DNA from: Gammaproteobacteria bacterium
Lineage (GTDB): Bacteria; Pseudomonadota; Gammaproteobacteria; SZUA-140
NCBI GenBank assembly: GCA_016712635.1
Contig: JADJQS010000006.1
Coordinates: forward strand, 511,216-575,215
DNA: 64,000 nt
Direction: 5' to 3'
Shown: positions 3,401-32,551 of the stretch, one piece after another
Layout of the letters: each line of letters starts with the position of its first letter
Numbering within the stretch: the first letter of the stretch is position 1
Notes under the pieces: model-generated
Seen by the model: the letters and a program-made list of their open reading frames with translations, nothing else
Database searches by the model: none
Told to the model about the DNA's origin: nothing
Program-made: the position numbers and the translations under genes

Positions 3401-4297
3401 ATGTCCCCTGACGCGCCAACCAGACGGCTGACCATCATCGGCGTCGGCCTGATCGGCGGATCGCTGGCGCGGGCGCTCAGGCGCGCATTCCCCGGCACCG
3501 AGATCATCGGCTCCGGGCGCCAGTTGCCCAACCTGCGGCGTGCGCTGGAGCTCGGCGTCATCGACCGCCACGAGACCGATCCGGCGCGCGCGGTAGAAGG
3601 AGCGGATCTGGTCGTGATTGCCGTACCGGTCGGGGCGATCGAATCCGTATTCGCCGCGATCGACGGGCATCTCGCGGCGGACGCGGTCATCACCGATGTC
3701 GGCAGTACGAAAGGCAATGTGGTCAGCTCTGCGCGGCGACGGCTCGGCGATCACCTGGCCGACTTCGTTCCCGGGCACCCGATCGCGGGCACGGAGCGCA
3801 GCGGCGTCGAGGCCTCGTTCGCCGAGCTGTTTCACGGCTGCCGGGTGATCCTGACGCCGCTCTCCGAGACGCGCCGCGCGGCGGTCGAACGCGTGCGCGC
3901 CGTATGGGAATGCGCCGGTGCGCGCGTGACCGAGATGGACGTGCGGCATCACGACGAGGTCCTGGCCGCCACCAGCCATCTGCCGCACCTGCTGGCCTAT
4001 ACGCTGGTCGACACCCTGGCGCGCATGGACGACAGCGAGGAGATCTTCGATTATGCCGCCGGCGGCTTCCGCGACTTCACGCGGATCGCCTCGTCGGACC
4101 CGGTGCTGTGGCGCGACATCTGCCTGGCCAATCGTGAGGCGATGCTCGGCATACTCCAGCGCTTCAGCGCAGACCTTGCCGGCATAGCCGAGGCCGTGCG
4201 CCGCGCCGACGGCGATCAACTGATGAAGGTGTTCGCGCACGCGAAGGAAGTGCGGGACCGGTTTTCCAAGAAAGGAACAGTGAGGAGTGAGGAGTGA
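3401..4297 (+). CDS. tyrA: Prephenate / cyclohexadienyl dehydrogenase.
   Basis: IIGVGLIGGSLARAL Rossmann motif and PDH domain. The stop lies within the repeat (..VRSEE*). Confidence 0.85.
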   Translation: MSPDAPTRRLTIIGVGLIGGSLARALRRAFPGTEIIGSGRQLPNLRRALELGVIDRHETDPARAVEGADLVVIAVPVGAIESVFAAIDGHLAADAVITDVGSTKGNVVSSARRRLGDHLADFVPGHPIAGTERSGVEASFAELFHGCRVILTPLSETRRAAVERVRAVWECAGARVTEMDVRHHDEVLAATSHLPHLLAYTLVDTLARMDDSEEIFDYAAGGFRDFTRIASSDPVLWRDICLANREAMLGILQRFSADLAGIAEAVRRADGDQLMKVFAHAKEVRDRFSKKGTVRSEE

Positions 4298-4378
4298 AGT
4301 GTGAGGCGCATAATATGGTGAGTGATATTGAGCATATTTCCTGTGTCGCCTCACTCCTCACGCCTAACGCCTCACCAA
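4280..4378. repeat. Heptamer-arm element copy B between tyrA and aroA.
   Basis: agtgaggagtgaggagtgaagtgtgaggcg ... gcctcactcctcacgcctaacgcctcacc. Supplies the tyrA stop codon. Confidence 0.8.
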
Positions 4379-4385: not shown

Positions 4386-5762
4386 ATGACCACGAAAGAA
4401 CACATCTTCGATATCAGCCCCGGCGGCCGTCTAACCGGCGACATCCGCGTCCCCGGCGACAAATCCATCTCGCACCGCTCCATCATGTTCGGTTCGCTGG
4501 CGGAGGGCGTGACCGAAGTGGAAGGATTCCTCGAGGGCGAGGACAGCCTGGCGACCCTGGCGGCGTTTCGCCGCATGGGGGTCGTCATCGACGGGCCCGA
4601 ACGGGGCAGGGTCACCATTCACGGCGTCGGCCTGCGCGGCCTGCGGGCGCCCGATGGCCCGCTCGATCTAGGCAACTCCGGCACATCGATGCGTCTCATG
4701 TCTGGCCTGCTCATCGCGCAAGCTTTCGACACGGAACTGACCGGCGACGCCTCGCTGTCACGCCGGCCGATGCGCCGTGTGACGCAGCCGCTGGCATCGA
4801 TGGGGGCGCGCATCGAGACCGGGGATTCGGGTACGCCACCGCTGCGGATCCGTGGCGGATCCAGGCTGCACGGAGTGCGTTATGACATGCCGGTGGCGAG
4901 CGCCCAGGTCAAGTCAGCGCTGCTGCTTGCCGGACTCTATGCCGAAGGGGAGACCTGCGTGACCGAGCCCGCGCCGACGCGCGACCATACCGAACGCATG
5001 CTCACCGCCTTCGGCTATCTGGTCACGCGCCACCACAACACGGTCTGTGTGAAAGGGGGAGGTAGACTCAATCCGACCCGCATCGAGATCCCGGCGGACA
5101 TATCCTCGGCGGCATTCTTTATGGTCGGCGCCGCGATCGCGCCGGATTCTGACGTGACGCTGACAGGCGTCGGCATCAACCCGACACGCATCGGGGTCAT
5201 CAATATCCTGCAGCAGATGGGCGCGCGGATCGAGTTGATCGACAAACGCATGTACGGCGGCGAACCGGTGGCCGACCTGCGCGTGCGCACGAGCGCCCTC
5301 AAGGGGATCGAGATCCCGCTTGAACAGGTCCCGCTGGCGATCGACGAATTTCCCGCCCTCTTCATCGCCGCGGCCTGCGCCGAAGGGCGGACGGTCCTGG
5401 CCGGCGCGGAGGAACTGCGCGTCAAGGAGAGCGACCGCATCCAGGTCATGGCTGACGGGCTGCAGCTGCTGGGCATTGATGCGGAACCGACACCGGACGG
5501 GATCATTATTCACGGAAAGGGCGGAGCCGATGCCAGGGGGACGGATGTAAAATCTGTCCCCGAGGATGAAGCGGTGTTTTCCGGCGGCGAGATCCAGAGC
5601 CACGGCGACCACCGCATCGCCATGGCCTTCGCCATAGCCGCACTGCGCGCCTCGAGTCCGATCCGCGTCCGTGACTGCAAGAATGTCGATACCTCGTTCC
5701 CGGAGGTTGTGGAGTTGGCAAGGGGGGCAGAGCTGGGGGTACGTATGAGGGGTGAGGCGTGA
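4386..5762 (+). CDS. aroA: 3-phosphoshikimate 1-carboxyvinyltransferase (EPSP synthase). At 458 aa it is longer than typical; it contains a hairpin-derived internal insertion and a repeat-derived C-terminal tail.
   Basis: Conserved LGNSGTSMRL, RPMRR and HGDHRIAMAFA motifs. An internal GGGGACGGAT..ATCTGTCCCC hairpin sits at about 5535-5561 in frame. The tail ..VRMRGEA* is encoded by the repeat. Confidence 0.9.
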   Translation: MTTKEHIFDISPGGRLTGDIRVPGDKSISHRSIMFGSLAEGVTEVEGFLEGEDSLATLAAFRRMGVVIDGPERGRVTIHGVGLRGLRAPDGPLDLGNSGTSMRLMSGLLIAQAFDTELTGDASLSRRPMRRVTQPLASMGARIETGDSGTPPLRIRGGSRLHGVRYDMPVASAQVKSALLLAGLYAEGETCVTEPAPTRDHTERMLTAFGYLVTRHHNTVCVKGGGRLNPTRIEIPADISSAAFFMVGAAIAPDSDVTLTGVGINPTRIGVINILQQMGARIELIDKRMYGGEPVADLRVRTSALKGIEIPLEQVPLAIDEFPALFIAAACAEGRTVLAGAEELRVKESDRIQVMADGLQLLGIDAEPTPDGIIIHGKGGADARGTDVKSVPEDEAVFSGGEIQSHGDHRIAMAFAIAALRASSPIRVRDCKNVDTSFPEVVELARGAELGVRMRGEA

Positions 5763-5855
5763 GGAGTGAGGAGAAAGAGTACGTCGAGTGGATTCAGCCT
5801 TCTGCCAATCAGATTCCGGTTTTTCGCCTCACGCCTACCCCTCACGCTTCACCTG
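5745..5855. repeat. Heptamer-arm element copy C between aroA and cmk.
   Basis: atgaggggtgaggcgtgaggagtgagg ... cgcctcacgcctacccctcacgcttcacc. Confidence 0.8.
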
Positions 5856-6752: not shown

Positions 6753-8429
6753 ATGAGTGAAAGCTTCGCACAACTTTTTGAACAGACCCAGGTAGAAAAG
6801 CAGATGCGTCCCGGTTCCATCGTGATCGGGATCGTCGTCAGCGTCGGCCCTGATGTCGTCGTGGTCAATGCCGGCCTTAAATCCGAGGGCGTCATCCCGA
6901 TCGAGCAGTTCTTCAATGACAGCGGCGTCGCCGATGTGCGCGTCGGCGACTCGATCGAAGTCGCGCTCGACGCCGTCGAGGACGGCACCGGAGAAACCCG
7001 CCTCTCCCGCGAGAAGGCCCGCCGCATCAAGCAGTGGGACATTCTCGACCAGGTCATGGCCAACGGCGACAAGGTCGTCGGCCGCATCAGCGGCAAGGTC
7101 AAGGGCGGCTTCACAGTCGACATCGGCGATATCCGCGCGTTCCTGCCCGGCTCGCTGGTCGACATCCGCCCGGTGCGCGACCTGTCCCACCTGGAAGGCA
7201 AGGATCTCGAATTCAAGATCGTCAAGACCGACCGCAAGCGCAATAACGTCGTCGTGTCGCGCCGCGCCGTGGTCGAGAGCGAAGGCAGCGCCGAGCGTGA
7301 TGCCCTGCTGTCCAACCTGGAGGAAGGCCAGGTGGTCAAGGGCGTGGTGAAGAACCTGACCGATTACGGCGCGTTCATCGACCTCGGCGGCATCGACGGC
7401 CTGCTGCACATCACCGACATGGCGTGGAAGCGCATCAAACAGCCGGCGGACATCGTCAATATCGGCGACGAGATCAACGTCAAGATCCTCAAGTTCGACC
7501 GCGAACGCAATCGCGTGTCGCTGGGACTCAAGCAACTGGGCGAGGATCCGTGGGAGAACCTCACGCGGCGCTACCCGGTCGGCTCCAAGGTGTTCGGCAA
7601 GGTCACCAATATCGCCGACTACGGCTGCTTCGTCGAGATCGAGGAGGGCGTGGAAGGCCTGGTGCACGTGTCGGAGATGGACTGGACCAACAAGAACATG
7701 CATCCCTCGAAGGTGGTGCATCTGGGCGACGAGATCGAGGTCATGGTGCTCGACATCGACGCCGACCGCCGCCGCATCTCGCTCGGCATCAAGCAGTGCC
7801 AGTCGAATCCGTGGGAGGATTTCGCGGGCCGCCACAACAAGGGCGACAAGATTGCGGGCGTGATCAAGTCAATCACCGACTTCGGCATCTTCGTCGGACT
7901 GGAAGGCGGCATCGACGGCCTGCTGCATCTGTCGGACCTGTCCTGGAACGCCGTAGGGGAAGAGTCGGCTCACAACTTCAAGAAGGGCGACGAGATCGAG
8001 ACCGTTATCCTGGCGATCGATCCGGAGCGCGAGCGCATCTCGCTCGGCATCAAGCAGCTCGAGCGTGATCCGTTCGAACTGTACGTGGCGGAGCATCCCA
8101 AGGGCAGCATTGTCACCGGCAAGGTCACCGCGATCGACGCCAAGGGCGTGACAGTGACGCTGGCGGACAGCGTGGAAGGTTATATCCGCTCGGCAGACCT
8201 GTCGCGCGAACGGGTGGAGGACGCCCATTCCGTGGTCACCGTCGGACAGGACGTGGAGGCGAAGTTCACCGGCGTGAACCGCAAGAACCACACCATCATG
8301 CTTTCGATCAAGGCGAAAGACGAGCATGAGGAGGCCGAAGCGGTCAGGGAATACAGCCGTTCCTCTTCCGAATCCGGTGGGGCAACGACGCTGGGGGATC
8401 TGATCAAGGAGCAGCTCGACAACAAATAA
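6753..8429 (+). CDS. rpsA: 30S ribosomal protein S1 (six S1 domains).
   Basis: 558 aa with repeated S1 motifs. Starts [10 protein letters not shown]. Confidence 0.95.
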
Positions 8430-12858: not shown

Positions 12859-14388
12859 ATGATCATCCAACCGGTCATCCTGTCAGGCGGCTCGGGTACC
12901 CGTCTGTGGCCGCTGTCGCGGGAACATTATCCCAAGCAGTTACTGGCCCCTGTCAGCGACCTGACCCTGCTGCAGTCCACTGTCAACCGCCTGGATCACC
13001 TTGAGGCGATGCAGGATGTCCGGATCGCCGCCCCGCTGGTCATCTGCAACGAGGAACACCGTTTTCTGGTGGCCGAGCAATTACGCCAACTGGGTAAGCC
13101 GCCTGGCCAGATCCTGCTCGAGCCGGTCGGACGGAATACCGCGCCGGCGGCCACCCTGGCGGCCCTGCATGCCGGGGACAGGGGCGCCGTGCTGTTGATC
13201 ATGCCGGCCGACCACCTGATACGCGACGAGGCGGCCTTTAGCCGGGCTGTAATCATTGGTGCGCGGCTGGCTTCGGCTGGCCAGGTCGTCACCTTCGGTA
13301 TCCTGCCGACACGCGCCGAGACCGGTTATGGCTACATCCACAAGGGCGCTGCCCTTGCGGGTGAGGCGTCAGGCGCGAGGCGTGAAGCGGTAGGGAAGGG
13401 AGCACTTTCACCTGACACCTCTCGCCTGACGCCTCACCTCATAGAACAGTTCGTTGAAAAGCCGGATGCCGCCACGGCGCAATCCTATCTCGACTCCGGA
13501 GAATATCTCTGGAACAGCGGCATCTTCATGGTGCGCGCCGCGGTGTGGCTGGAAGCGATCATGCGCCACCGCCCGGACATTTATTCCGCTGCGGAGCAGG
13601 CGTACACGAGCGGCAAGCAGGACGGAGACTTCTACCGCGTGGACAAGAAACTGTTCGCCACGTGCCCCAGCGACTCCATCGACTACGCCGTCATGGAAAA
13701 GCTCACCGCCTCCATCTCCTCACCCCTCACGCCTGACGCCTCACCGATAACCGCGGCGGTGATCCCGCTGGATGCCGGCTGGTCGGACGTCGGCGCCTGG
13801 TCCAGCCTGTGGGAGGTCTCGCCGCAGGACGCCGACGGCAATATCCTGCGTGGCGACGTCATCGCTGAAGACACTCGCAATTCCCTCCTGTACGCCGAGC
13901 ACCGCCTGCTCGCCGGCGTAGGCCTTGATAACATTATTGCGATCGAGACCGCCGACGCCATCCTGGTCGTGCACAAGGACAAGGCGCAGAACGTGAAGGA
14001 TATCGTCGCCCACCTGAAGAAGCAGGGGCGCAGCGAGCACCAGATCCACCGCCGCGTACATCGTCCATGGGGCAGCTACGAAGGCATTGACAAGGGGGAA
14101 CGTTTCCAGGTCAAGCGTATCACGGTCAAGCCGGGTGCTTCGCTCTCCCTGCAGATGCACCACCATCGCGCCGAGCACTGGATTGTCGTGAAGGGGACCG
14201 CCCGCGTCGTGCGCGGGGACGATGAATTCCTGCTCAGTGAAAACGAGTCCACCTATATCCCGATCGGGGTCACCCACCGCCTGGAGAATCCGGGAACGCT
14301 CCCGCTCGAACTGATCGAGGTTCAGTCGGGATCATATCTTGGGGAAGACGATATCGTCAGGTTCGAGGATCACTACGGAAGGAAGTGA
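12859..14388 (+). CDS. manC: Bifunctional mannose-1-phosphate guanylyltransferase / mannose-6-phosphate isomerase (ManC/CpsB type). Carries two in-frame repeat-derived insertions.
   Basis: N-terminal nucleotidyltransferase (ILSGGSGTRLWPLS) and C-terminal cupin (QMHHHRAEHWIVV). 509 aa versus about 480 typical. Confidence 0.9.
   Translation: MIIQPVILSGGSGTRLWPLSREHYPKQLLAPVSDLTLLQSTVNRLDHLEAMQDVRIAAPLVICNEEHRFLVAEQLRQLGKPPGQILLEPVGRNTAPAATLAALHAGDRGAVLLIMPADHLIRDEAAFSRAVIIGARLASAGQVVTFGILPTRAETGYGYIHKGAALAGEASGARREAVGKGALSPDTSRLTPHLIEQFVEKPDAATAQSYLDSGEYLWNSGIFMVRAAVWLEAIMRHRPDIYSAAEQAYTSGKQDGDFYRVDKKLFATCPSDSIDYAVMEKLTASISSPLTPDASPITAAVIPLDAGWSDVGAWSSLWEVSPQDADGNILRGDVIAEDTRNSLLYAEHRLLAGVGLDNIIAIETADAILVVHKDKAQNVKDIVAHLKKQGRSEHQIHRRVHRPWGSYEGIDKGERFQVKRITVKPGASLSLQMHHHRAEHWIVVKGTARVVRGDDEFLLSENESTYIPIGVTHRLENPGTLPLELIEVQSGSYLGEDDIVRFEDHYGRK
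13360..13440 (+). repeat. Complete heptamer-arm element inserted in frame inside manC (about 81 nt, encodes GEASGARREAVGKGALSPDTSRLTPHL).
   Basis: ggtgaggcgtcaggcgcgaggcgtgaagcg..cctgacacctctcgcctgacgcctcacctc. TGA triplets of the left arm are mutated or out of frame. Confidence 0.75.
13727..13746 (+). repeat. Right-arm (CCTCAC) fragment in frame inside manC (encodes SSPLTPDASP).
   Basis: tcctcacccctcacgcctgacgcctcacc. The corresponding segment is absent from typical ManC between the MEK and VIPLDAGWSD blocks. Confidence 0.65.
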
Positions 14389-14566
14389 GGCGTGAGGGGG
14401 CAGGTGTGAGGCGAAAATACTAACTATGGGAGGTCTGATTAATTCGTCATGCCCGCGCAGGCGGGCATCCAGGTCCTTGAATTACTGGTTTCCCGCTTTC
14501 GCGGGAATGACAACCAGGTAATTATTCAGGTTTCCCTAACGCCTAACACCTAACGCCTCACCAACA
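14385..14566. repeat. Composite element between manC and gmd. Heptamer-arm element (arms at 14385-14418 and 14535-14566) with a CCCGC double-hairpin element nested in its loop (14446-14511).
   Basis: agtgaggcgtgagggggcaggtgtgaggcg ... gtcatgcccgcgcaggcgggcat..ttcccgctttcgcgggaatgac ... cctaacgcctaacacctaacgcctcacc. Confidence 0.8.
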
Positions 14567-15667: not shown

Positions 15668-15703
15668 ATGTGAAGTGTGAGGAGTGAGGTGTTAGGCGTA
15701 TGA
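15668..15703. repeat. Left arm of the heptamer element that carries the four-helix-bundle gene.
   Basis: tgtgaagtgtgaggagtgaggtgttaggcg immediately after the gmd stop. Confidence 0.7.
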
Positions 15704-15733
15704 GCTTACAGAATTTCCACGGAGGGAAATCCA

Positions 15734-16096
15734 ATGAGCAGAATACATCACGGACTCTTGGCGTGGCAGCACGCTATGAAGTTTGTAAAGGATATTTATG
15801 AGGTCACATCGGCATTCCCAAAATGTGAAATGTACGGGCTGACAAGTCAAATGAGGCGTGCCGCGGTTAGCGTGCCATCCAACATCGCGGAAGGTGCCGG
15901 AAGGGCCAGTTTCAGGGAGTTTGGGCAATTTCTCACGATAGCTCGTGGCTCTCTGTGCGAGCTCGAGACCCAGGTTGTCCTGGCTAAAGAGTTAGGCTAT
16001 ATCGCAGAGAACGATGATTTACTATCCAAAATGGAAAAACTGTTCGCTTTACTGGGTGGACTGATCAATTCTATCGGGAAACGATATCAGCAATGA
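15734..16096 (+). CDS. Four-helix-bundle protein (23S rRNA intervening-sequence protein / Avd-like family). Low-GC cargo inside the repeat element.
   Basis: 120 aa. [46 protein letters not shown] are hallmark motifs. Local GC is visibly lower (about 47%) than the neighbours. Confidence 0.8.
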
Positions 16097-17088
16097 CGCT
16101 TCACGCCTCACACCTAACACCTGACCTCTCTATCTACGTTGCCGGCCATCGCGGCCTGGTCGGTTCCGCCCTGATGCGTCGATTTCAAGCAGCAGGATAC
16201 AGCAATCTGGTTACACGGACGCATCGTGAGCTGGATCTCACCGACCAGGCGGCGGTGCGCGAATTTTTCCGGACGGAGAAACCGCGGCGGGTGCTCCTGG
16301 CCGCGGCGAAGGTCGGCGGGATACTGGCCAACGACACCTATCCGGCGGAATTCATCCGCGAGAACCTTGCCATCCAGACCAACGTAATTCACGAGGCCTG
16401 GCGCTCCGGCGTCGAGCGGCTCCTGTTTCTGGGATCTTCCTGCATCTATCCGCGCGAGTGCCCGCAGCCGATGAAGGAAGAGTATCTGCTTACCGGCCCG
16501 CTGGAGAAGACCAACCGCGCCTACGCGGTGGCGAAGATCGCCGGCATCGAGATGTGCCGCTCCTACAATCAGCAGTACGGAACCCGTTACCTTGCCGTGA
16601 TGCCGACCAACCTGTACGGTCCGGGTGACAACTTCGACCTGCAGAACTCCCATGTGCTGCCCGCACTGATACGCAAGATGCACGAGGCAAAGCTCGCCGG
16701 ATCACCCGCGGTCACGGTATGGGGAACAGGGACGCCGCGCCGGGAATTTCTGCACAGCGACGACCTCGCCGACGCCTGCCTGTTCCTGCTGAGCCTGCCG
16801 GAAGAGCAATACGCCTCACTCCTTACGCCTCACGCCTCACCGCCGTTGATCAACGTCGGATGCGGTCAGGACGTCACCATCCGCGAGCTGGCCGAGACCG
16901 CGCAGCGTGTCGTCGGATACCCGGGCCGCCTGGAGTTCGACACCAGCAAGCCTGACGGGACGCCGAGAAAGCTGCTGGACGTATCGCGCCTGAGCGCGCT
17001 TGGCTGGACGCCGCGCATCGGCCTGGCCGACGGAATCGCGCAGGTATATCGCTGGTACCTGGATCAACCCGCCTCGCAGGCGCATTGA
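16093..17088 (+). CDS. fcl: GDP-L-fucose synthase (GDP-4-keto-6-deoxymannose 3,5-epimerase/4-reductase). The true start is probably near 16129. Contains one in-frame right-arm insertion at 16813-16841.
   Basis: [14 protein letters not shown], the YPAEFI motif and the C-terminal domain. The first ~12 codons of the ORF-track model ([12 protein letters not shown]) are repeat-encoded. The internal [10 protein letters not shown] insert is absent from E. coli Fcl. Confidence 0.85.
16098..16128. repeat. Right arm (CCTCAC repeats) closing the element around the four-helix-bundle gene. Overlaps the annotated 5' end of fcl.
   Basis: cgcttcacgcctcacacctaacacctgacctc. Confidence 0.7.
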
Positions 17089-17139: not shown

Positions 17140-17222
17140 GTCGTCCCCGCGAAAGCGGGGATCCAGTGGCTTTAAGCCGATGAAAAGCAGAAACACTGGA
17201 TTCCCGCTTTCGCGGGAATGAC
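17140..17222. repeat. CCCGC double-hairpin inverted element, copy 2, between fcl and gmhB.
   Basis: gtcgtccccgcgaaagcggggatccag ... tggattcccgctttcgcgggaatgac. The same termini and architecture as 14446-14511. Confidence 0.75.
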
Positions 17223-17276
17223 GCATTTATCTTTCATTGCAAACATGCATTTCCAATTTTGAGATAGGTTCCAGTT

Positions 17277-17945: not shown

Positions 17946-18518
17946 ATGAGTGACCGTATCGTAAAAGCGCTGGAAGACCACGAGAACGTCCTTGCGGCCG
18001 TGCGGGATAACCTCGTCGCCGATATCGAGCAGGTGGCGCAATGCCTGATCGACTGCCTCGGCCGGGGCCACACCATCTTCTGGTGCGGTAACGGCGGAAG
18101 CGCGGCGGACGCACAACACATCGCCGCGGAACTTGTCGGCCGCTTCGAGCGCGAACGGAAAGCGCTCGCCTCCATCGCGCTGTCCACTGATACCTCAATC
18201 CTGACCAGCGTGGGAAACGACTATGGCTTCGACAGCATCTTCAAGCGCCAGGTCGAAGCACTGGTTCGTCGGGGTGATGTGCTCGTGGGCCTGTCCACCT
18301 CGGGCAACAGCCCGAACGTGGTGCGCGCCATCGAACAGGCGAACGGCCAGGGCGCCACCACGATCGGCGTGCTGGGCAGAGACGGCGGCCGGATAATAAA
18401 ACTTTGCCGCCTGTCGATAGTTGTGCCGGCGGAAAACACCGCGCGCATCCAGGAGATGCACGGGCTAATCGGGCACATACTGTGCGATCTGATTGAAAAG
18501 AGCAGGACTGAGGACTGA
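17946..18518 (+). CDS. gmhA: Phosphoheptose isomerase (SIS domain).
   Basis: IFWCGNGGSAADAQHIAAE, LSTSGNSPNV. The stop lies in the repeat (..RTED*). Confidence 0.85.
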   Translation: MSDRIVKALEDHENVLAAVRDNLVADIEQVAQCLIDCLGRGHTIFWCGNGGSAADAQHIAAELVGRFERERKALASIALSTDTSILTSVGNDYGFDSIFKRQVEALVRRGDVLVGLSTSGNSPNVVRAIEQANGQGATTIGVLGRDGGRIIKLCRLSIVVPAENTARIQEMHGLIGHILCDLIEKSRTED

Positions 18519-18630
18519 GTGCTCAGGACTGAGTAAAAGACAAAATCTACCCGAGCCAGATAAGCTAAGTTTAAATAGAAATAATGTTTATGGGTTTTCA
18601 CTCAGTCCTAAGACCTCAGTCCTCAATCCT
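18506..18630. repeat. Variant heptamer-arm element with ACTGAGG / CCTCAGT arms between gmhA and cysC.
   Basis: ggactgaggactgagtgctcaggactgag ... cactcagtcctaagacctcagtcctcaatcc. Confidence 0.75.
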
Positions 18631-18648
18631 ATTATTTAGGAGTTCATC

Positions 18649-19269: not shown

Positions 19270-19348
19270 GGGGACAGATTTTTATCTGTCCCCCGATATC
19301 GCAATGATGCCAGTACGCCTCACACCTAACGCCTCACACCTCACGCTC
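19270..19348. repeat. GGGGACAGAT hairpin (19270-19294) followed by a right-arm-only CCTCAC repeat block (19315-19348).
   Basis: ggggacagatttttatctgtcccc ... gcctcacacctaacgcctcacacctcacgctcg. Confidence 0.75.
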
Positions 19349-19353: not shown

Positions 19354-21120
19354 ATGAGCCTTGAAGCCTGGTTTACCGTTGCCGTCATCGGCCTCTGCCT
19401 CGGGCTGCTGATACACGGGCGCACGGCGCCGGACATCGTCATGATGGCCGGCCTGACCCTTCTGCTGGTGTCCGGCATACTGACGCCAACGGAAGCTCTT
19501 TCCGGTTTGTCGAATGAGGGCATGGTCACGGTGGGCATCATGTTCGTCATCGTGACCGGCCTGCGCGATACCGGCGCCATCGCCTGGATCGTGCAGCACC
19601 TGCTCGGTGTGCCGCGCTCGACCGCCCACGCCCAGATGCGCCTGATGACCCCGGTCGCCGCCATGAGCGCCTTCCTCAACAACACTCCGGTGGTCGCGAT
19701 GATGATCCCGGCGGTGCAGGACTGGGCGCGCCGCCACCGGATCTCCGTCTCCAAGCTGATGATCCCGCTGAGCTATGCCACCATCGCCGGCGGCACCTGT
19801 ACCCTGATCGGCACCAGCACGAATCTCGTTGTGAACGGCATGCTGATCAAGGAGACCGGCCACGGACTCAAGATGTTCGAGCTCGCCTGGGTGGGTATCC
19901 CGCTGGTGGTGGTGGTCTTCCTCGGCATCGTCCTGCTTAGCCGCTGGCTGCTGCCAGAGCGCAAGCCGGCCATCAGCCAGTTCGAGGAATCGCGCGGCTA
20001 TACCGTGGAGATGATGGTGGACTCCAGCGGGCCGCTGGTCGGCAAGACAGTGGAGCAGGCCGGCCTGCGCCACCTGCCGGGTCTGTATCTGATCGAGATC
20101 GACCGCGGCGAGCAGGTGCTGCCGGCCGTTTCGCCGCTCGAGCGGCTGCAGGCGAACGACCGGCTGATCTTCGCCGGGGCGGTGGAATCGGTCATCGACC
20201 TGCAGAAGATCCACGGCCTCTCCCCGGCCACCGACCAGATCTTCAAGCTGGGCATGCCACGGCCGGAACGCTGCCTGATCGAGGCGGTGATCTCCAACAG
20301 CGCCCCGCTGGTGGGCAAGAGCATCCGCGAGGGGCGCTTCCGCACCCTCTACAACGCGGCGGTCATCGCCGTCTCGCGCAGCGGCGAGCAGATCAAGGGC
20401 AAGATCGGCGACATCGTGCTGCGTCCGGGCGACACCCTGCTGCTGGAAGGGCACCCGTCCTTTGTTGAGCAGCAGCGCAATTCGCGTGACTTCTATCTGG
20501 TGAGCCGTCTGGCGGGCTCGACCCCGCTCAATCATGACAAGGCGCCGATCGCACTCGCGATCATGACCGCCATGGTGGCCGCCGCCGCCTTCGGCTGGCT
20601 CAGCATGCTGCAGGCGGCGCTGCTGGCCGCCGGCGCGATGTTGATTACCCGCTGTACGCGCGGCAGCAATGCGCGCGCAGCGGTGGACTGGCAGATCCTG
20701 ATCGTGATCGCCGCCTCGCTCGGCATCGGCAAGGCGCTGGAGACCACGGGTGCGGCGCAGGCAATGGCTGACGGTTTCCTGTCCTTCACCGGGGCAGGCC
20801 CGCTGATGGCGCTCTTCGTGGTCTACGTCATGACTGTGCTGTTCACCGAGATCGTGACCAACAATACCGCTGCTGCACTGATGTTTCCCATCGCGCTTGC
20901 GCTCAGCAAATCACTCGATGTGAGCTACATGCCCTTCATCATCACCATCACGGTGGCGGCTTCGATGAGCTTCGCCACTCCGATCGGGTACCAGACCAAC
21001 CTGATGGTGCTGGGTCCGGGCGGTTATCGCTTCACCGACTACATGAAACTTGGTATCCCGCTGACCGTCATGGTCGGGATACTGATTATGCTGATTGTCC
21101 CGCGGGTGTGGGCGTTCTGA
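19354..21120 (+). CDS. SLC13/DASS-family anion permease with two central TrkA-C (RCK_C) domains. Candidate sulfate or dicarboxylate transporter.
   Basis: 588 aa. N- and C-terminal multi-TM halves around two repeated roughly 70-aa TrkA-C-like segments (GKTVEQAGLRHLPGLYLIEIDRGEQ.. and GKSIREGRFRTLYNAAVIAVSRSGEQ..). Confidence 0.7.
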   Translation: MSLEAWFTVAVIGLCLGLLIHGRTAPDIVMMAGLTLLLVSGILTPTEALSGLSNEGMVTVGIMFVIVTGLRDTGAIAWIVQHLLGVPRSTAHAQMRLMTPVAAMSAFLNNTPVVAMMIPAVQDWARRHRISVSKLMIPLSYATIAGGTCTLIGTSTNLVVNGMLIKETGHGLKMFELAWVGIPLVVVVFLGIVLLSRWLLPERKPAISQFEESRGYTVEMMVDSSGPLVGKTVEQAGLRHLPGLYLIEIDRGEQVLPAVSPLERLQANDRLIFAGAVESVIDLQKIHGLSPATDQIFKLGMPRPERCLIEAVISNSAPLVGKSIREGRFRTLYNAAVIAVSRSGEQIKGKIGDIVLRPGDTLLLEGHPSFVEQQRNSRDFYLVSRLAGSTPLNHDKAPIALAIMTAMVAAAAFGWLSMLQAALLAAGAMLITRCTRGSNARAAVDWQILIVIAASLGIGKALETTGAAQAMADGFLSFTGAGPLMALFVVYVMTVLFTEIVTNNTAAALMFPIALALSKSLDVSYMPFIITITVAASMSFATPIGYQTNLMVLGPGGYRFTDYMKLGIPLTVMVGILIMLIVPRVWAF

Positions 21121-21149
21121 GCGCTGGGTAGTAAGTATTGAGGCAGTGT

Positions 21150-21967
21150 ATGAAACTGAGCGCCATATTATTCAGGCGACAGAAAACAGATCTTTATGAG
21201 TGGCGGCGCATAAAAGCAGGTAGCCGAAATTTTATATAGCGTTTCTGCTATGGCTGATATCGTTGAGAAAATGCTCACACAAGTGCTGCATGGACTATCT
21301 GGTCTTCTGGAGAGTCAATTAATAAAGGTATTCACATGTTGATAGGTGGCCGTTCTGAGACCTTATTTCTGGTCTGCCTGAAGAAACTGCTCTGTGACTC
21401 AAAGAATATACTGGATATTGGAACGCCAGAAAGATTTGCCAAGGAATTACGGCGTTACGAGAGCTTGTTTCTGGAAAGAACTATCTCGCAGCAGGATTTA
21501 ATCCAGAAATGAACAAGGGTCAGTACAATTGCGACTTACATCAAGATATAGAAATGATGACATTTGATGATTCATCATTTGATGCGGTCATTTGCCTAGA
21601 GGTACTCGAGCATGTCGCAAATCCATTCCAAGCCGTCCATGAAATAAAGCGCGTGTTGATAAACGGCGGAAAACTTCTGCTAACGGTTCCATTTCTCAGC
21701 CAGTATCATGGAAAAAGCGCTTTATCGCATGATCATTTAAATTATCCCGATTATTGGCGTTTTACGCATGAGGGTTTACATAAGCTGTTTCATGATTTCA
21801 CGAATCTTGAAGTGTTACCCCTGGATGGACCGATCGAATTCAGACTAAAGCAATTTTATCTCACTCGCTGGATAAATTACCCTGCTATTCGGAGAATCAT
21901 AGATCTAATAGACAAACCGGAGCGCGGCAAGGCCACAACGAGACATCTTGTTTACGGCATCAAATAA
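21150..21967 (+). pseudogene. Class I SAM-dependent methyltransferase broken into several short frames. Only the C-terminal 152-aa ORF (21509-21967) is intact.
   Basis: The C-terminal ORF has the post-motif-I region (FDAVICLEVLEHVANP..GGKLLLTVP). The N-terminal ILDIGT-containing piece is in another frame and ends in a stop at about 21507. Confidence 0.45.
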
Positions 21968-21972
21968 ACAAG

Positions 21973-23098
21973 ATGAAGATTCTAGTAGTGACGGGAATAT
22001 TCCCTCCGGATCATGGTGGTCCGGCGAGCTATGTGCCGGAGATTGCACAGGCGTTGTCTGTGAAACATACAATAGTGTCAGTAATAACCTTGAGTGACTT
22101 GTTGAACCACAGCGATGAAAACTATACGTTTCCGATCTTGAGAATTTTACGGAAAGCTAACAAGATTTCTCACATTTAGAATAGTTAATACCATAAGAAA
22201 ATATTCCAAAGAGGCAGATGTCATATTCGTCAATGGACTGATCTTCGAAAGCATCGTTGCATGCAAATTATTCTCAAGGAAACCGTTAGCCATAAAAATC
22301 GTTGGTGACCTGATTTGGGAAAAGGCGAAACTATCATCACCTGACACGGTATCCATCGATGAATTCCAGAGAAATGTGGCGGGTATAAAGTGGAAAATTT
22401 TGAAATGGATCTACAATAAGCTGATCAATCAGTGCGATGCCATTATCGTACCAAGCCTATATCTATGCAGGATTGTTAAAGGTTGGGGAATCGATACTGC
22501 AAAAATTAACGTCGTATACAACTCCGTGAAACCACAGTCTCTTCCATATGCTAATTATGGAGAAGGCGGCAATGTCGATTGCGTTACAGTGGCGAGATTG
22601 GTGCCTTGGAAGGGAATTAGTGAGCTTATAGATGTCGTTTGTGAAAACAAGTGGACTTTAAATGTTATCGGTGACGGCCCCCTAAAGGAGGATCTTGTAT
22701 GCAGAGCGCTCAAGCACAGTAATAATTCTGTACAATTTCTTGGTTATGTACCTCGTGATCAGGTGCATTCTGAAATTTCCAAAGCCAAGATATTCATCCT
22801 TAACTCGACATATGAGGGATTGCCACACATTGTTCTCGAGGCGAAACAAGCCGGAGTAGCCGTTATTGCAACCGCTGTTGGTGGAACACCTGAGACAATA
22901 ACAGATGGCGTAGATGGATATCTTATTCCCCCGGGGGACAATGCCATGCTAAGAGAGAAAATCGGATATTTGCTATCCAACAATGATAAGCGCACTCAGG
23001 TAGCATCGAAAGGTAGAGAACAGGTTTTGCATAACTTTTCATTTGAAACCATGGCTACCAAAACTGAGAAAATCCTTGAAAATACCCTGAATAGGTAA
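21973..23098 (+). pseudogene. GT4-family glycosyltransferase interrupted by a single frameshift near 22140-22180 (ORFs 21973-22179 and 22376-23098 plus an unlisted bridging segment).
   Basis: The N-terminal piece is KILVVTGIFPPDHGGPASYV. The C-terminal piece has EGLPHIVLEAKQAGVAVIATAVGGTPE. The bridging segment IVNTIRKYSKEADVIFVNG.. reads in the frame of the second ORF. Confidence 0.55.
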
Positions 23099-23106
23099 AC
23101 CGGCTG

Positions 23107-24306
23107 GTGCATATCATGGGTCATCCGATAAATATCCTCCTTCTCAGCAAAGATCCCACCTTATTCGAGCAAAATGATGCTGTCATCGGTGACACAAGAA
23201 AGCGACACATCGCCTACTCGAATATACTGCAATCAAGGTACCCCGGAAGCCAAATAAAAGTCATAACCTACACAAAGAGAACTTCGCTACTTCAGCATGA
23301 GAAAATCAATCAATCTCTCTCGATTTTCGGGACCGCCTCTGCTCACCGCATCACCTATTTGGCCGGTGTGATAAGAATGCTGCCTAAAACGCTGGAGGAT
23401 GGATGGCGGCCAGATATCGTCACTGCTCAGACCCCATGGGAAGAAGGCATCGTCGGATACGTGATATCAAGAATATTCAATGCTAAGTTCATACTGCAAA
23501 TCCATTTCGATTTGTTTTCTGAGCACTGGCGAAAAGAAAACAGATTTAACCTGTGGCGTAACTTGATTGCGCGCGCATTGATCAAACGATCTGATGCTGT
23601 TCGAGTAGTTTCAGAATTCCAAAAACACCAACTGGTGGATTGCCTCGGAAAACCATCCGGCACGATCCGGGTTATACCTGTAGGGGTGAATTTTCAGCCA
23701 TTAGATGGTGAAAAGTCTGCATTCAAACGAAAGATAGCTATTTCATTGGAGGCTAAAAAAGTTGTCTTGTTTGTTGGTAAATTTTATGCACCAAAAAATC
23801 TCCAACTATGGATTGATGTTGCGCAGCTTATTAGCCGTGATAACCCAGACGTAATGTTTGTCATGGCAGGCAACGGGCCCATGTTTGGTGAGATAAGGGA
23901 GGCGGTCATCAACCGTGGACTATCAGATAGATTTATTTTCTTGGGTTATGTCAAGCATGAGGAATTGCCCGGAATATATGCGGCCGCCGATGTCTTTCTA
24001 CTTACCTCATATTATGAGGGATTTGGCAGAGTCGTCCTTGAGGCCTATCTAGCCAAAATCCCTGTTGTGAGTACCAAATGCGCCGGAACACTCGACCTCA
24101 TCGAATCAGGTGTCACTGGAATATTAGCTCCTGTTGGTGATGCACAAACGTTAGCAGATGGTGTGATAAACCTGCTCTCCGCTGATGAACTGAGGATGTC
24201 TTATGGGACTAAGGGACATGCGAGAGTGAATGTGAAATATGGTTTTGCTAACTTATCAAATAAGTTAGTCGACTTCTGGGGAAGTGTTTGCGATGAGTCA
24301 ACCTGA
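23107..24306 (+). CDS. GT4-family glycosyltransferase.
   Basis: 399 aa. EGFGRVVLEAYLAKIPVVSTKCAGTLDLIESGVTG motif. Confidence 0.8.
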   Translation: MHIMGHPINILLLSKDPTLFEQNDAVIGDTRKRHIAYSNILQSRYPGSQIKVITYTKRTSLLQHEKINQSLSIFGTASAHRITYLAGVIRMLPKTLEDGWRPDIVTAQTPWEEGIVGYVISRIFNAKFILQIHFDLFSEHWRKENRFNLWRNLIARALIKRSDAVRVVSEFQKHQLVDCLGKPSGTIRVIPVGVNFQPLDGEKSAFKRKIAISLEAKKVVLFVGKFYAPKNLQLWIDVAQLISRDNPDVMFVMAGNGPMFGEIREAVINRGLSDRFIFLGYVKHEELPGIYAAADVFLLTSYYEGFGRVVLEAYLAKIPVVSTKCAGTLDLIESGVTGILAPVGDAQTLADGVINLLSADELRMSYGTKGHARVNVKYGFANLSNKLVDFWGSVCDEST

Positions 24307-25150
24307 TTTTATCGGTATAGGAGCGCAAAAATCAGGTACTTCATGGATTTATGCGTGCCTACATGTACATCCTCAGGTTTGTATACCGCGTAAGGAAATA
24401 CATTTTTTCAGCAGAGAGCGAAACTGGTCTAAAGGATATGATTGGTATGCAGGAAACTTTGACGGCTGTCATGCGGGGCAGGTAATCGGTGAATTCTCAA
24501 CTTCATACTTGGCGGATGAGTACACGCCTGCGAGGATCCATAATAAATTTCCTGATGTGAAACTGGTCGTGTCTCTACGCAATCCAATTGACAGAGCCTA
24601 TTCCAATTATATTAACGATATCAAAACAGGTATTGTGTCCAGTTCTACGGACTTTCTGGATGCGTTGGATAGCCATCCTGAATACATGAACCAAGGTCAG
24701 TACGCGCGCCAAGTAAATCGTTACCTAGATTATTTTAAGCCAGCTCAATTGCTGATATTAATCTACGAGGATAGTTTGATCGATCCCGGGGACTATATAA
24801 AAAAAATATACAGATTTCTCAATATTGACCATGAATTTATACCTGAATTTATTCGTACAAAGATAAATCCTGCCAGGATTCCACGTCATGTCTGGATTGA
24901 TTCCGGGATAAGGGCTGTCTCCAGTTACCTGAGATCAAACGGGTTTCGTACTCTATTCTGGCAAATAAAAAAATCAGGCCTCGCGGAAAGAATTCGGACA
25001 CTGAATACAAGAATGGATATCAGACGCGCTGATGTGATAGACACTCAAACTAGACATTATTTGTATGAGAAATATGATATCCAGTCAGAAATTTCTGCTA
25101 TTTCAAAAATAATTGGAAGAGATCTTATCGAGTGGCGCATTCAAACATAA
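24293..25150 (+). CDS. Carbohydrate sulfotransferase (PAPS-dependent sulfotransferase domain).
   Basis: 5'-PSB motif IGIGAQKSGTSW and 3'-PB motif VVSLRNPIDRAYSNY. The start is probably the second ATG (MSQPDF) overlapping the upstream GT stop. Confidence 0.8.
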   Translation: MSQPDFIGIGAQKSGTSWIYACLHVHPQVCIPRKEIHFFSRERNWSKGYDWYAGNFDGCHAGQVIGEFSTSYLADEYTPARIHNKFPDVKLVVSLRNPIDRAYSNYINDIKTGIVSSSTDFLDALDSHPEYMNQGQYARQVNRYLDYFKPAQLLILIYEDSLIDPGDYIKKIYRFLNIDHEFIPEFIRTKINPARIPRHVWIDSGIRAVSSYLRSNGFRTLFWQIKKSGLAERIRTLNTRMDIRRADVIDTQTRHYLYEKYDIQSEISAISKIIGRDLIEWRIQT

Positions 25151-26204
25151 CAGTGATTTGCCAGGTTGTTGACGAGCATGATCCTATTAATGCAACAGCT
25201 GTCAGATGGATTCGTGTTCTGTCACAAAAGAATCAGGTAGGGAAAGTAACTGTCCTGGCATTAAAAGTCGGTGAATATAACTTGCCTGATAATACGAGAG
25301 TGTTCTCGTTTAGAGGAAGAAATCGCATTTCTACTTTGATTAAGTTCTATTCCCTGATAATAAAAGGAGTGATGGTAAATAAAACGGATTATTATTTTAT
25401 CTATCAGGGTGGCCCATATCCGTTGCTACTTTTACCATTTAAGCTTTTGGTGGTAAAAACGTATACCATTGGAAAGCACATCCACATATTACCTTTATGA
25501 TGAAATTATACGCGCGTTACTGCGACACCGTTGTATTTACTTCAACAACCAATGCATTTCCCATGCAATTACCCAATCTCAGAGTTATTGGGCAGGGCGT
25601 TGATACAGAAAAATTTCGGGTGTTGGGAAAGGAAAGAAATAAAGATCTTGTCATTGTTGGCAGGATTGCCCCGGTCAAGCGCTTGGAAAGCATAATTTTC
25701 ATATTGACGCATTTGAATCTCAAGTACGGAATAGCTCCGAAAGTAGATTTATATGGTCCGATATCAGGACAGGATAAGAAATATAAGGAGCACATAGACC
25801 ATCTAATCTGTGAGCAGAAATTGAATGATCAGATTATTTTTCATGGGCCAGTTAGGCAGGATGCCCTCCCGGAGATATTTAATACCCACAAGCTCCTTGT
25901 CAACTTTTCTGATACTGCATTGGATAGAGTTGTCGTCGAAGCTATGGCCTGTGGATTGCCAGTGTTCTCGACGAATAACTGCGTTAGAGAGATCATCCCC
26001 GACGCTTATCATGATATTCTGACTTGTGTTGACCAACACGAAAACCATGCGCTGCTTGCTGAATTGATCTACTCACTGCTTTTGCTGCCTGATGCCATCA
26101 GAACCCATATCGGCAGGGACCTAAGAGAAATTATATTACATCATCATAGTGATATAACCCTGTTCGACAGAATGTTAGCCGAAATCGGAAACTATGAAAA
26201 ATAA
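25132..26204 (+). pseudogene. GT4-family glycosyltransferase split over two frames (25132-25500 and 25497-26204).
   Basis: The N-domain piece ends ..GKHIHILPL*. The C-domain piece (VVEAMACGLPVFSTNN) starts in a different frame. Together about 357 aa, the size of a whole GT4. Confidence 0.5.
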
Positions 26205-26994
26205 ATTCTCGATAAAAATTGGCGTCAGAAACTCATTCATCATTGCCAATGGAATGTATAAAAACATCAGAAACTCACTGCCTGATAAGCGGATTGTCGC
26301 AATTCACGATATCAATGACTCGATCAGATTCCGAGATAAAATGCATTGGCTGCGCGAAACATATGACATTCTTAGTTTGGGCGATTTGCTCGAAACTAGC
26401 ATAGGCAACAAAACACAGATCGCCATAACATTTGATGACGGCTATCTGTCATGGCGTGATAATGTTATTCCGGTGCTGGTGGATCTCAATATTCCTGCCA
26501 CTTTTTTTATTTGCTCTGGTTTTGTTGGTCTTGATGAAATTGATGCAAGAAAGTTTGCTGTTAATTGCTTCAGGAGAAAACAGAAGCTGCTTCCACTTCA
26601 AGCAGAGCACATCAGATCGATATCTGATCATAAATTGTTCGAGATAGGTGGACACACGGCGCATCACCTGGATCTCGGAAAAGAGTATCCCACAGAAATT
26701 CTGATAGATGAAATTATAAGAGACCGTGAACTATTAGAGGATTGGACAGGCGATGATGTACGATGGTTCGCATATCCATTTGGAGGAAGAATTAATGTCT
26801 GTAATCAGACAAAAGAATTTGTCAGAAATACTGGTTATAGCGCTGCGTTTACTATCATTCCTAGATCAGCGAACGAGATCGAGGATTTCTATGAAATAGG
26901 GAGGGATAGCCTGGACATCTATGCATCAGATCTTTTATGGAGAAACTGGCTTAACGGCGGTTACGACATGATTAAGAAAACAAGGATTTCGTAA
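26194..26994 (+). CDS. Polysaccharide deacetylase (NodB homology, CE4 family).
   Basis: ITFDDGY, FFICSGFVG, GGHTAHH motifs. Confidence 0.8.
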   Translation: MKNKFSIKIGVRNSFIIANGMYKNIRNSLPDKRIVAIHDINDSIRFRDKMHWLRETYDILSLGDLLETSIGNKTQIAITFDDGYLSWRDNVIPVLVDLNIPATFFICSGFVGLDEIDARKFAVNCFRRKQKLLPLQAEHIRSISDHKLFEIGGHTAHHLDLGKEYPTEILIDEIIRDRELLEDWTGDDVRWFAYPFGGRINVCNQTKEFVRNTGYSAAFTIIPRSANEIEDFYEIGRDSLDIYASDLLWRNWLNGGYDMIKKTRIS

Positions 26995-27602
26995 TGAACA
27001 AGTTTGAATATGTGAGGAATATTATCCTTTCTGAACCAGTGAATAACAAAAGTCTGCTCGATGTCGGATGCAGAGGATGTGAATTAAAGTCTTATGTCGG
27101 AGATGTGGTTGCATACAAAGGTGTGGACCTATTCCAAAATCCATCGAATAGCGTTGACTACGTGTTGGATGTAGAAAATGGACTTCCCATGGAAAATAGT
27201 TCAAGTGACTATGTCGTAGCCTTGGATTTGGTTGAACATCTTAATGATTTTCAAGGCGGCTTAGAAGAATTACTGAGGGTGGCGCGAGAGAAACTCATCG
27301 TAATGCTTCCAAATATGGCTCACTGGGTTTTCAGGAAGGAATTCCTTTTTCATGGAAGGATCGGTGCAAAATATGATCTTTCATATGGAATGGGAAAAGA
27401 CCGACATCGCTGGTTCACTGTGTTGCCACAGACGGATGAATATATAAAAAGGTTTTGTGACGAAAATAATCTCGAGTTACAGGTCATCTGGTTTAATGGA
27501 GGAAGAAAGAAAGAACTATTCTATCGAGTAACGAAATTCCTGGGTTTTCCGCCATCAATAGGCGTGTGGGCATCACTTTATATAATGAAAAAAATGTCAT
27601 AA
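26994..27602 (+). CDS. Class I SAM-dependent methyltransferase.
   Basis: LLDVGCRGCE motif I, VVALDLVEHL. 202 aa. Confidence 0.7.
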   Translation: MNKFEYVRNIILSEPVNNKSLLDVGCRGCELKSYVGDVVAYKGVDLFQNPSNSVDYVLDVENGLPMENSSSDYVVALDLVEHLNDFQGGLEELLRVAREKLIVMLPNMAHWVFRKEFLFHGRIGAKYDLSYGMGKDRHRWFTVLPQTDEYIKRFCDENNLELQVIWFNGGRKKELFYRVTKFLGFPPSIGVWASLYIMKKMS

Positions 27603-27796
27603 ATATATCGTGCGTACACCATCATGCATGATGGAAACGAGAGCAGAGTTTCGTCGTAGAATTGAGTCGTTATCTGCGTCTAAGCACACCTTTACTATTC
27701 ATGGATTGTCTGTGTCGCATTAATCGATGCATTTACCCATCGCATATGGTCACTGGTCTCTCTCTTTTGATTCTTACTGGAAAATAAGAGAATCAA

Positions 27797-29059: not shown

Positions 29060-29184
29060 ACTCTCGTATTCAATGGCGAGAGAAGCTGCTATCGGCCATT
29101 GTTGGGTATCTAGAGGTCAATCAATCATGAGAAATCTGGCCATTAGTAACCCATTGTTTGTCTCATTAGTTCTCCCTCGTAGTA

Positions 29185-30315: not shown

Positions 30316-30349
30316 AATGGCTTCCAAATGACCAGTAAGGTTCGCCACG

Positions 30350-32457: not shown

Positions 32458-32551
32458 GATAAATAGCCTTATCTCCTGTTTCTATATTAGTATAAATCAT
32501 AAGACGATGTCATTGTGCTGATCAAGATTTGCACGGCAACGAGATAAGAAC

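Follow-up and report, generated by a model that had tools for sequence, protein, structure and literature searches.

A heptamer-repeat hairpin inside manC

The 64-kb stretch of gammaproteobacterial DNA analysed here (contig JADJQS010000006.1; the whole stretch is called the window below) carries within its manC gene a hairpin made of tandem heptamer repeats, which lies in frame with the coding sequence and belongs to a family of repeats found in the gaps between the neighbouring genes. The manC product is the bifunctional mannose-1-phosphate guanylyltransferase / mannose-6-phosphate isomerase. Its Pfam matches (NTP_transferase over residues 5-325, ManC_GMP_beta-helix, MannoseP_isomer and Cupin_2) flank the insert in the same frame, and its best sequence match in the PDB is 2x5s, the T. 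maritima GMP. Comparison of the window with two relatives, L081 and L085, gave a ratio of non-synonymous to synonymous substitution (dN/dS) of 0.12-0.16 outside the inserts, so that the host gene can be considered functional. The features of the gene, in nucleotides (nt), codons and amino acids (aa), are the following:

12859-14388, + strand: manC, one uninterrupted open reading frame (ORF) of 509 aa with two in-frame repeat segments
13360-13440, + strand: heptamer-repeat hairpin, 81 nt, codons 168-194, peptide GEASGARREAVGKGALSPDTSRLTPHL
13360-13390, + strand: left arm of the hairpin, G + GTGAGGC GTCAGGC GCGAGGC GTGAAGC + GG
13369-13371, + strand: TCA (Ser171) in unit 2, the sole position where the consensus unit puts a TGA in frame
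13391-13408, + strand: loop of the hairpin, coding for part of VGKGAL
13409-13438, + strand: right arm of the hairpin, CACCTGA CACCTCT CGCCTGA CGCCTCA CC
13717-13746, + strand: second in-frame segment, of right-arm type only, codons 287-296, SSPLTPDASP

The hairpin follows the plan (GTGAGGC)4, 18-nt loop, (GCCTCAC)4, and its first base, 13360, is a first codon position. The right arm, which contains no stop codon in any frame of the + strand, base-pairs with the left one without a mismatch over the outer 16 bp. Folding of this region as RNA gave -55.5 kcal/mol (z = -5.3), a stability that none of 200 shuffled sequences attained, and across the four orthologs that carry the hairpin the values range from -55 to -69 kcal/mol with z between -5 and -6.6. 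An earlier note on this DNA, which had been made from the sequence alone, described a complete 81-nt arm-loop-arm element in the manC frame at 13360-13440, and the single ORF running through codons 168-194 bears this out. The same note held that every TGA of the left arm was either mutated or out of frame, which is correct for unit 2, where the in-frame TGA reads TCA, and for unit 4, where the TGA is intact and out of frame; the T>C change of unit 3 and the GAG>GAA change, on the other hand, are not stop removals. To speak of purged stop codons therefore goes too far, since one TGA alone had to be absent and one forward frame is already open, through unit variants, in the intergenic copies at 49468-49539 (E11) and 18505-18631 (E7). 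Because such copies exist, the open frame with its TCA may predate the insertion. As for the second segment, it is present and supernumerary as the note had claimed, with coordinates that had to be corrected from 13727-13746 to 13717-13746; its units, TCCTCAC CCCTCAC GCCTGAC GCCTCAC, span 13717-13744.

Both segments fall in parts of the protein where the length of ManC varies. Among 106 homologs with recognisable anchors, the linker between the GYGYI and FVEKP strands has 10 to 37 aa with a median of 20, against 37 aa in the window, in agreement with the shortfall of roughly 20 aa that the earlier note gave for homologs at this place. Loop 2, which houses the second segment, has 26 aa in the window against 12-36 aa (median 19.5) in the same homologs, and the alignment with 2x5s shows gaps opposite both inserts. 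An AlphaFold model of ManC was obtained from 29 sequences with a mean predicted local distance difference test (pLDDT) score of 73.8 and has 2x5s as its best Foldseek match. Its pLDDT falls below 50 at residues 170-188 and 287-293, the former stretch being flanked by confident strands at 159-165 and 193-199. Because of the long linkers, the gaps in 2x5s and the low pLDDT between confident strands, both manC segments are taken to be additions to variable, probably exposed loops. At the right edge of loop 1, directly before the xIxxFVEKP strand, many array-free homologs present an [ST]P[HY] motif whose codons resemble the heptamer unit. Two other accounts of the insert were considered and ruled out: a split gene or a former intercistronic origin, as the site lies within the nucleotidyltransferase domain, and a translational bypass or RNA excision, as the frame is open and conserved with no stop at the take-off site.

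Retention, trimming and recurrence in related genomes

Syntenic loci were recovered from nine relatives, the close ones through exact-protein look-ups. Alignment of the orthologs, a check suggested by the earlier note, confirmed the extra segments: the whole hairpin stands at the same codons in the window, in L173 (91% identity of manC DNA) and in L081 and L085 (about 80%), with a TCA at the Ser171 position in all four, and the same in-frame structure was obtained from five independent assemblies. Other relatives carry shortened forms. L082 is devoid of the left arm and its manC is 7 codons shorter; in L086 the gene is 14 codons shorter and the outermost codons of both arms remain; in L084 and L087 the right arm alone remains. 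The first loop of the L084 gene (P0005, 8513-8542) reads (CAGTCCT)3 where the window has GCCTCAC units, so that the unit at one coding site differs between related genomes. A ManC search of genome and metagenome contigs added no hairpin-bearing ortholog among the matches listed, the best relatives there being 71% and 65% identical and the nearest named one being a Chromatiales metagenome-assembled genome (MAG) with 71% identity.

In a neighbour-joining tree of ManC homologs built with both loops masked, the carriers of the full hairpin form a paraphyletic group within a single clade, with the shortened forms nested among them. In-frame shortening on this tree amounts to 7 codons in P0004 and to 14 codons in P0007 and in P0005/6/8, with the outer arm codons alone left in P0007 (GEA(R)G...PH), and in the sister clade (P0009-16) the linker counts 19 aa and is free of arrays. 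Most simply, these sequences would reflect a single gain within a clade of uncultured Gammaproteobacteria and, after it, three or more in-frame reductions. The four full-hairpin lineages span a dS of about 0.8-0.9.

Beyond this clade, heptamer-coded peptides (PHPSPLTPH, QSSVLSPQS, SRVTSHESPVTSYE) occupy one or other of loops 1 and 2, or the two together, in at least five separate ManC clades, and because of this recurrence the loop must be regarded as a recurrent acceptor and not as the site of a single event. The manC of L170 (535-2022, P0020) combines a perfect (CCTCACC)3 in loop 1 with a perfect (CAGTCCT)4 in loop 2. Loop 2 of L082 (8841-8893) contains a perfect 21-nt tandem duplication of three heptamers which codes twice for SPLTPHA, showing that coding arrays can change length by frame-preserving steps of three units. 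An array is present in P0034 and absent from its sister P0060. Heptamer arrays (at least two) occur in only 12 of the 172 loci surrounding manC homologs in diverse bacteria, which limits the phenomenon to certain lineages. The earlier note had pointed out that the same segment in unrelated orthologs would speak for an ancestral linker, and this is partly what was found, since a separate clade (P0012/P0013, 69-71% identity) bears ...DTSRLTPH at the same site, a peptide kept in P0012 and L088 through 5 synonymous and 1 non-synonymous changes. Most homologs and the solved structures, however, are without the segment, for which reason it is not an ancestral linker of the family.

At the nucleotide level, the arms of the four hairpin-bearing orthologs are far better conserved than the remainder of manC. 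In the arms, 4 of 20 third codon positions vary, against 278 of 472 elsewhere in the gene (Fisher p = 0.0008), and 27 of the 31 positions of the left arm are invariant, whereas 15 of the 18 positions of the hairpin loop vary, against 30% in the rest of manC (p = 6e-6). When L081 is compared with L085, the two longest identity runs of manC (31 and 39 nt) turn out to be the arms, which are also the sole 30-nt windows without a difference, while the loop and the codons just 5' of the left arm differ. A search for covariation in the stem found 86.7% of the cells paired and no double-sided pair change among the four orthologs, which is no better than shuffled controls. Two changes in the window, CTC>CTG and CCC>CGC, restore two pairs of the outer stem; they were discounted, as four other changes of the right arm break inner pairs. 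The second manC segment, which is an array without a hairpin, also shows a low variability at third positions (3 of 10). The conservation of the arms could be caused by selection on the hairpin, by selection on the repeat sequence or by homogenisation from other copies.

The hairpin family in the gaps between genes

The GTGAGGC family occupies about 12 loci of the window, where the 21-mer (GTGAGGC)3 gave 49 matches with at most 3 mismatches for 0.00 expected. The copies situated between genes, a hairpin of the same architecture and the features around fcl are the following:

1046-1162: intergenic copy between a 2-hydroxyacid dehydrogenase gene and pheA, left arm starting from the last base of the TAG stop
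4280-4375: intergenic copy between tyrA and aroA, upstream stop within the left arm
5745-5852: intergenic copy between aroA and cmk, upstream stop within the left arm
14385-14561, + strand: intercistronic copy between manC and gmd, whose first TGA (14386-14388) is the manC stop; another palindromic repeat in its loop (14446-14520)
15670-16125: arms around the 23S_rRNA_IVP ORF in the gmd-fcl spacer, left 15670-15697, right 16098-16125
15734-16096: 23S_rRNA_IVP (PF05635) ORF, a four-helix bundle of 120 aa, between the left and right heptamer arms
16813-16840, + strand: internal right-arm-type array of fcl, exceeding the matching E. coli Fcl loop by 2 aa
18497-18637: hairpin of ACTGAGG units with the same architecture, between gmhA and cysC
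19317-19344: right-arm-only array, ending 10 nt 5' of the start of a transporter gene
44519-44712: intergenic copy with 14 perfect GTGAGGC units
45781-45966: intergenic copy between the convergent sppA-like and maf genes, 12 perfect units, a stop codon abutting each arm
49468-49539: smallest intergenic copy, between fabH and fabD, 4 + 4 units, 16-nt loop, 72 nt, one frame stop-free

In the eight full intergenic copies, the G-rich arm begins at or across the stop codon of the gene before it, and the C-rich arm stops 10-65 nt short of the next start codon. The arms are inverted repeats of 28-31 nt and the elements measure 72-194 nt; the loops, of 16-126 nt, are unrelated except in the pair 44519-44712 / 45781-45966. 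The manC copy has the same 4 + 4 plan as the smallest intergenic one. The neighbouring genes are housekeeping ones (pheA, tyrA, aroA, cmk, fabH, fabD, gmhA, cysC). All G-rich units seen include TGA or TAA, and they are also rich in GGAG/GAGG; since each unit holds a stop, three tandem units put one in all three frames, and most intergenic copies do have stops in all three forward frames, while the GCCTCAC arm is stop-free in every frame. Coding arrays are confined in the window to manC and fcl, both genes for surface sugars. All coding arrays, those of the relatives included, have the C-rich orientation except the TCA-repaired left arm of manC. An Rfam scan of the whole window returned no family above threshold, and a literature search on the exact repeat sequence returned no papers.

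The spacer between manC and gmd illustrates how such hairpins are exchanged. It is occupied by hairpins of different units, all of which start at the manC stop codon:

Window, 14385-14561: GTGAGGC
L173, 1732-1905, and L081, 9530-9680: ACTGAGG
L082, 9536-9736, and L087, 9473-9698: ACTAAGG, as (AGGACTA)n
L084, 9485-9578: GGTAATG, as (ATGGGTA)n

Between the window and L173, this spacer is wholly replaced from the stop codon to just short of the Shine-Dalgarno sequence, whereas four of the five other spacers (gmd-IVP, IVP-fcl, fcl-gmhB, gmhA-cysC) are 93-99% identical. Such a wholesale swap amid nearly identical spacers indicates that the elements behave as replaceable units. The gmd gene of L173 appears split, which might have been a fresh insertion; the interruption is a run of N, that is, a scaffold gap, and this candidate was rejected.

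The case of fcl is less clear than that of manC. Its internal array lies in a region conserved in four of the five aligned loci, and because it exceeds the loop of E. coli Fcl by merely 2 aa, it does not constitute a clear insertion. The earlier note had argued that both proteins have tolerated their inserts if these are retained; for manC, retention in relatives and a dN/dS of 0.12 support this, and for fcl the claim of an insert is overstated. At the other end of the gene, the right arm 16098-16125 codes for residues 1 to 11 of the fcl ORF as it was called; eight extra N-terminal residues derive from this arm and are present only if the ATG at 16093, overlapping the IVP stop, is the start, and in relatives with a TAG in that arm fcl starts past it. 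The IVP ORF between two arms has the same layout in L173 and is found with other heptamers in L082 and L087.

Several other observations concern the window. The copies 44519-44712 and 45781-45966 flank a peptidase S49 gene (44777-45784) and have near-identical loops (130 nt at 99%), which suggests a recent duplication or conversion together with active expansion of the units. A second palindromic repeat, unrelated to the heptamers and of the GTCATKCCCGCG...CGCGGGAATGAC type, has two copies, 14446-14520 and 17141-17225, the former nested in the loop of the manC-gmd hairpin. From 20001 to 36000, 3' of the sugar-nucleotide genes, the GC content drops to 41-49% from about 62% elsewhere and no heptamer array is present; this stretch is probably a laterally acquired polysaccharide island. 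The FabH-like ORF 48158-49468 has 436 aa as listed and matches Pfam only from about residue 150, so that its N-terminus may be extended or its start wrongly set.

Origin of the manC copy and its place among known repeats

We consider it probable that the manC segment is an anciently acquired, in-frame and translated hairpin of the stop-to-ribosome-binding-site heptamer type, tolerated as a disordered surface loop and kept under nucleic-acid constraint in four lineages. The family would have its usual home in the gap that runs from the stop codon of one gene to the ribosome-binding site (RBS) of the next. A copy of about 80 nt would have entered the loop region between the GYGYI and FVEKP strands of the nucleotidyltransferase domain in an ancestor of the clade of uncultured Gammaproteobacteria. 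It could persist there because its length keeps the frame, its C-rich arm is free of stops and the lone in-frame TGA reads TCA. The insert would now contribute about 27 residues to a disordered loop at the surface of a functional ManC. In-frame deletions would have trimmed it in some descendants, and in the four lineages that retain the whole hairpin the arms would still be constrained as nucleotides and the loop would drift. We infer in addition a single gain, a route by copying in and the functional neutrality of the peptide.

A number of points weigh against this reading. Translation of the insert is deduced from the ORF and its conservation, and the test of arm conservation involved only four hairpin-bearing sequences, in which this conservation is not assignable to base pairing since the stem displays no compensatory change. 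P0012, which belongs to a separate clade (69% identity), possesses a decayed full-length version with an equally long linker, which implies that the segment was gained earlier and lost several times, was gained a second time or was transferred. The linker is intrinsically variable and the recurrent peptides use different units at the two loops; given this variability and the recurrence in at least five clades, the manC site could grow arrays in place. The copies also lack what a mobile element would be expected to leave: no target-site duplication was found at nine family copies, the sole regularity of their flanks being the stop codon at the left end, no internal body is shared among the copies, bar one pair, and no transposase appeared in the 15 ORFs scanned with Pfam, nearly all of which flank elements and are housekeeping genes or IVP.

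For these last reasons, the label of miniature inverted-repeat transposable element (MITE), which the earlier note had given to the inserts, is not supported. The family does share with MITEs the inverted-repeat ends, the small size, the absence of an internal transposase (one copy does enclose the 23S_rRNA_IVP ORF, which does not code for a transposase) and a polymorphism of presence/absence or replacement, as seen in the manC-gmd swap between the window and L173 and in P0034 versus P0060, but three hallmarks of MITEs are lacking: target duplication, a shared body and, among the ORFs scanned near elements, a transposase. Since its copies run from a stop codon to the next RBS, the family resembles the inverted heptamer pairs of Xanthomonas and Nostoc rather than classic MITEs.

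The arrays might, alternatively, have grown in place with no insertion at all. Native codons for T-P-H (ACGCCTCAC) or S-P-Y (AGTCCTTAT), which resemble the heptamer, would have seeded them through template switching or ectopic gene conversion, with the numerous other arrays of the genome as donors, and later steps of 21 nt would have altered their size, in which case the phenomenon would be one of simple sequence repeats and not of a mobile element. This explanation draws on the [ST]P[HY] motif that precedes the xIxxFVEKP strand in many array-free homologs, on the different units found by clade at the same spot (GCCTCAC, CCTCACC, CAGTCCT), on the perfect arrays of two units in L170, one per loop, on the perfect 21-nt duplication of L082 and on the internal array of fcl, which replaces a native loop and adds 2 aa only; the missing target-site duplication and the treatment of published heptamer families as simple sequence repeats (PMC4692102, PMC4679880) point the same way. 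Slippage of a C-rich seed, however, cannot yield a G-rich left arm and a loop, and the manC copy has the complete 4 + 4 plan of the intergenic copies. Single-unit steps would moreover shift the reading frame, the linker of the sister clade is 18 aa shorter and array-free, and the swap of manC-gmd hairpins between genomes 91% identical in manC indicates that elements move or are replaced as units. We regard growth in place as unlikely. An error of assembly in the repeats, a wrong frame or a manC pseudogene would also produce an apparent insert, and the source is a metagenome-assembled genome, in which repeats are error-prone, with a scaffold gap in the neighbouring gmd of L173; yet the in-frame structure agrees across five independent assemblies, the insert is flanked on either side by homologous sequence in a single frame and the gene is under strong purifying selection (dN/dS 0.12), so that such an artefact is scarcely credible.

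The in-gene hairpin might have been co-opted, either as an mRNA structure tuning ManC synthesis or marking a processing site, or as a slippage-prone heptamer tract that turns manC, and through it a GDP-mannose/fucose surface polysaccharide, on and off. The arms kept at synonymous sites while loop and flanks diverge, the very stable fold in four orthologs (-55 to -69 kcal/mol), the restriction of coding arrays in the window to two surface-sugar genes and the published link between heptanucleotide tracts and phase variation (PMC4679880) would all fit. Several lineages, on the contrary, have deleted the hairpin and kept manC intact, the stem shows no covariation, each arm is made of four different, imperfect units that are poor substrates for slippage, and the array-only site 2 is also slow at third positions (3 of 10), which suggests an effect common to all arrays, homogenisation for example, and not one of this hairpin. 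Co-option therefore seems to us rather improbable. We also give little credence to a broader version, in which a replaceable, stop-anchored hairpin system, one arm of which has stops in all three frames, would be written or swapped between stop and RBS and occasionally into permissive loops, the manC copy being selected as a nucleic-acid hairpin under a dual coding and structural constraint. Returning to the tolerated, anciently acquired insert, slow arms and a drifting loop pose a question that can be tested: whether structure, sequence or homogenisation is responsible.

The analogy with the Rickettsia palindromic elements, proposed in the earlier note, holds. These elements (Ogata et al. 2000, 2002) are found in frame in housekeeping genes as well as between genes and are translated (PMC10969869). 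The manC hairpin is likewise palindromic, has intergenic counterparts, lies in frame in an intact, constrained protein gene and is kept in relatives; it may also lie at the protein surface and be compatible with the fold, having low pLDDT in a variable loop between confident strands and a gap opposite it in 2x5s. The differences are nonetheless substantial: the Rickettsia elements measure about 100-150 nt against about 80 nt for that of manC, and they have hit dozens of genes, against manC, and arguably fcl, in the 64 kb studied here. The host of the manC copy belongs to a free-living gammaproteobacterial lineage of activated sludge, its peptide is of low complexity and modelled as disordered, and its arms are tandem heptamers with stops in every frame of one arm and in none of the other, heptamers being unmentioned for the Rickettsia elements in PMC10969869. 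Set apart by its host and its heptamer arms, the manC hairpin would be a functional analogue of these elements and not a member of their family. Translated palindromic repeats have been known mainly from Rickettsia, and one made of tandem heptamers is now added from free-living gammaproteobacteria of activated sludge. It provides a dated conversion of a repeat into protein, with one gain, four full-hairpin lineages and at least three trimmings on the reading preferred above, and suggests that repeats of this sort can be permanently incorporated into proteins. On the practical side, these segments inflate protein lengths and introduce low-complexity peptides of the 'PHPSPLT' or 'QSSVLSP' kind into databases; EAVGKGALSPDTSR is an example of a peptide whose detection would prove translation of the insert.

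Closest in kind to the manC element are the published inverted pairs of heptamer repeats. Xanthomonas (GGGAATC)n and Nostoc (GGGGAYT)n are G-rich heptamers that include convergent inverted pairs (Rehm et al. 2015, PMC4692102). They mostly have four tandem units and lie between co-directional ORFs, many of the inverted pairs can form a stem-loop, a minority are intragenic and the G-rich tract stands at or over the stop codon, all of which applies to the family of the window. The units differ, being GTGAGGC, ACTGAGG, ACTAAGG and GGTAATG with their TGA or TAA instead of GGGAATC or GGGGAYT, and a G-quadruplex is unlikely here because the runs of G reach at most 2-3. Positional conservation of those repeats between Xcc and Xac is put at 83% (PMC4692102), whereas orthologous spacers bear different units in our relatives. 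That paper describes no complete inverted pair translated within a gene, which is what the manC copy would be. Hairpins that run from stop codon to RBS, with a heptamer unit that changes from one close relative to the next in orthologous spacers, are a poorly described class.

Other dispersed repeats are more remote. REP/BIME, ERIC, Correia and BOX (PMC10969869, PMC2229807) are non-coding hairpins dispersed in operons with occasional in-frame intragenic copies, as here. Unlike REP/BIME and classic MITEs, the heptamer hairpins have neither a GTAG-type REP head, nor a conserved core, nor a target duplication; their arms are tandem heptamers and their loop is whatever separates two genes, up to the whole IVP gene. 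The TAACTGA repeats of marine Beggiatoaceae, Cyanobacteria and Bacteroidetes (MacGregor 2015, PMC4679880) have in their 'forward' orientation stops in three frames and lie over upstream stops and just before starts, much as in the window. In a few ORFs their 'reverse' arrays are translated, giving 7-aa repeats that are mostly peripheral in the protein. Almost all of them are direct, with one inverted case in 170, and they have no predicted structure, whereas the inverted pairs described here form long hairpins with z of -5 or lower and both arms lie in the middle of the protein in manC. In a more distant Gammaproteobacteria MAG (L026, about 7405-7440), the TAA stop of manC is followed directly by TGGTGAA TGATGAA TGATG, so that another lineage seems to have a heptamer tract of comparable kind, likewise anchored at a stop codon.

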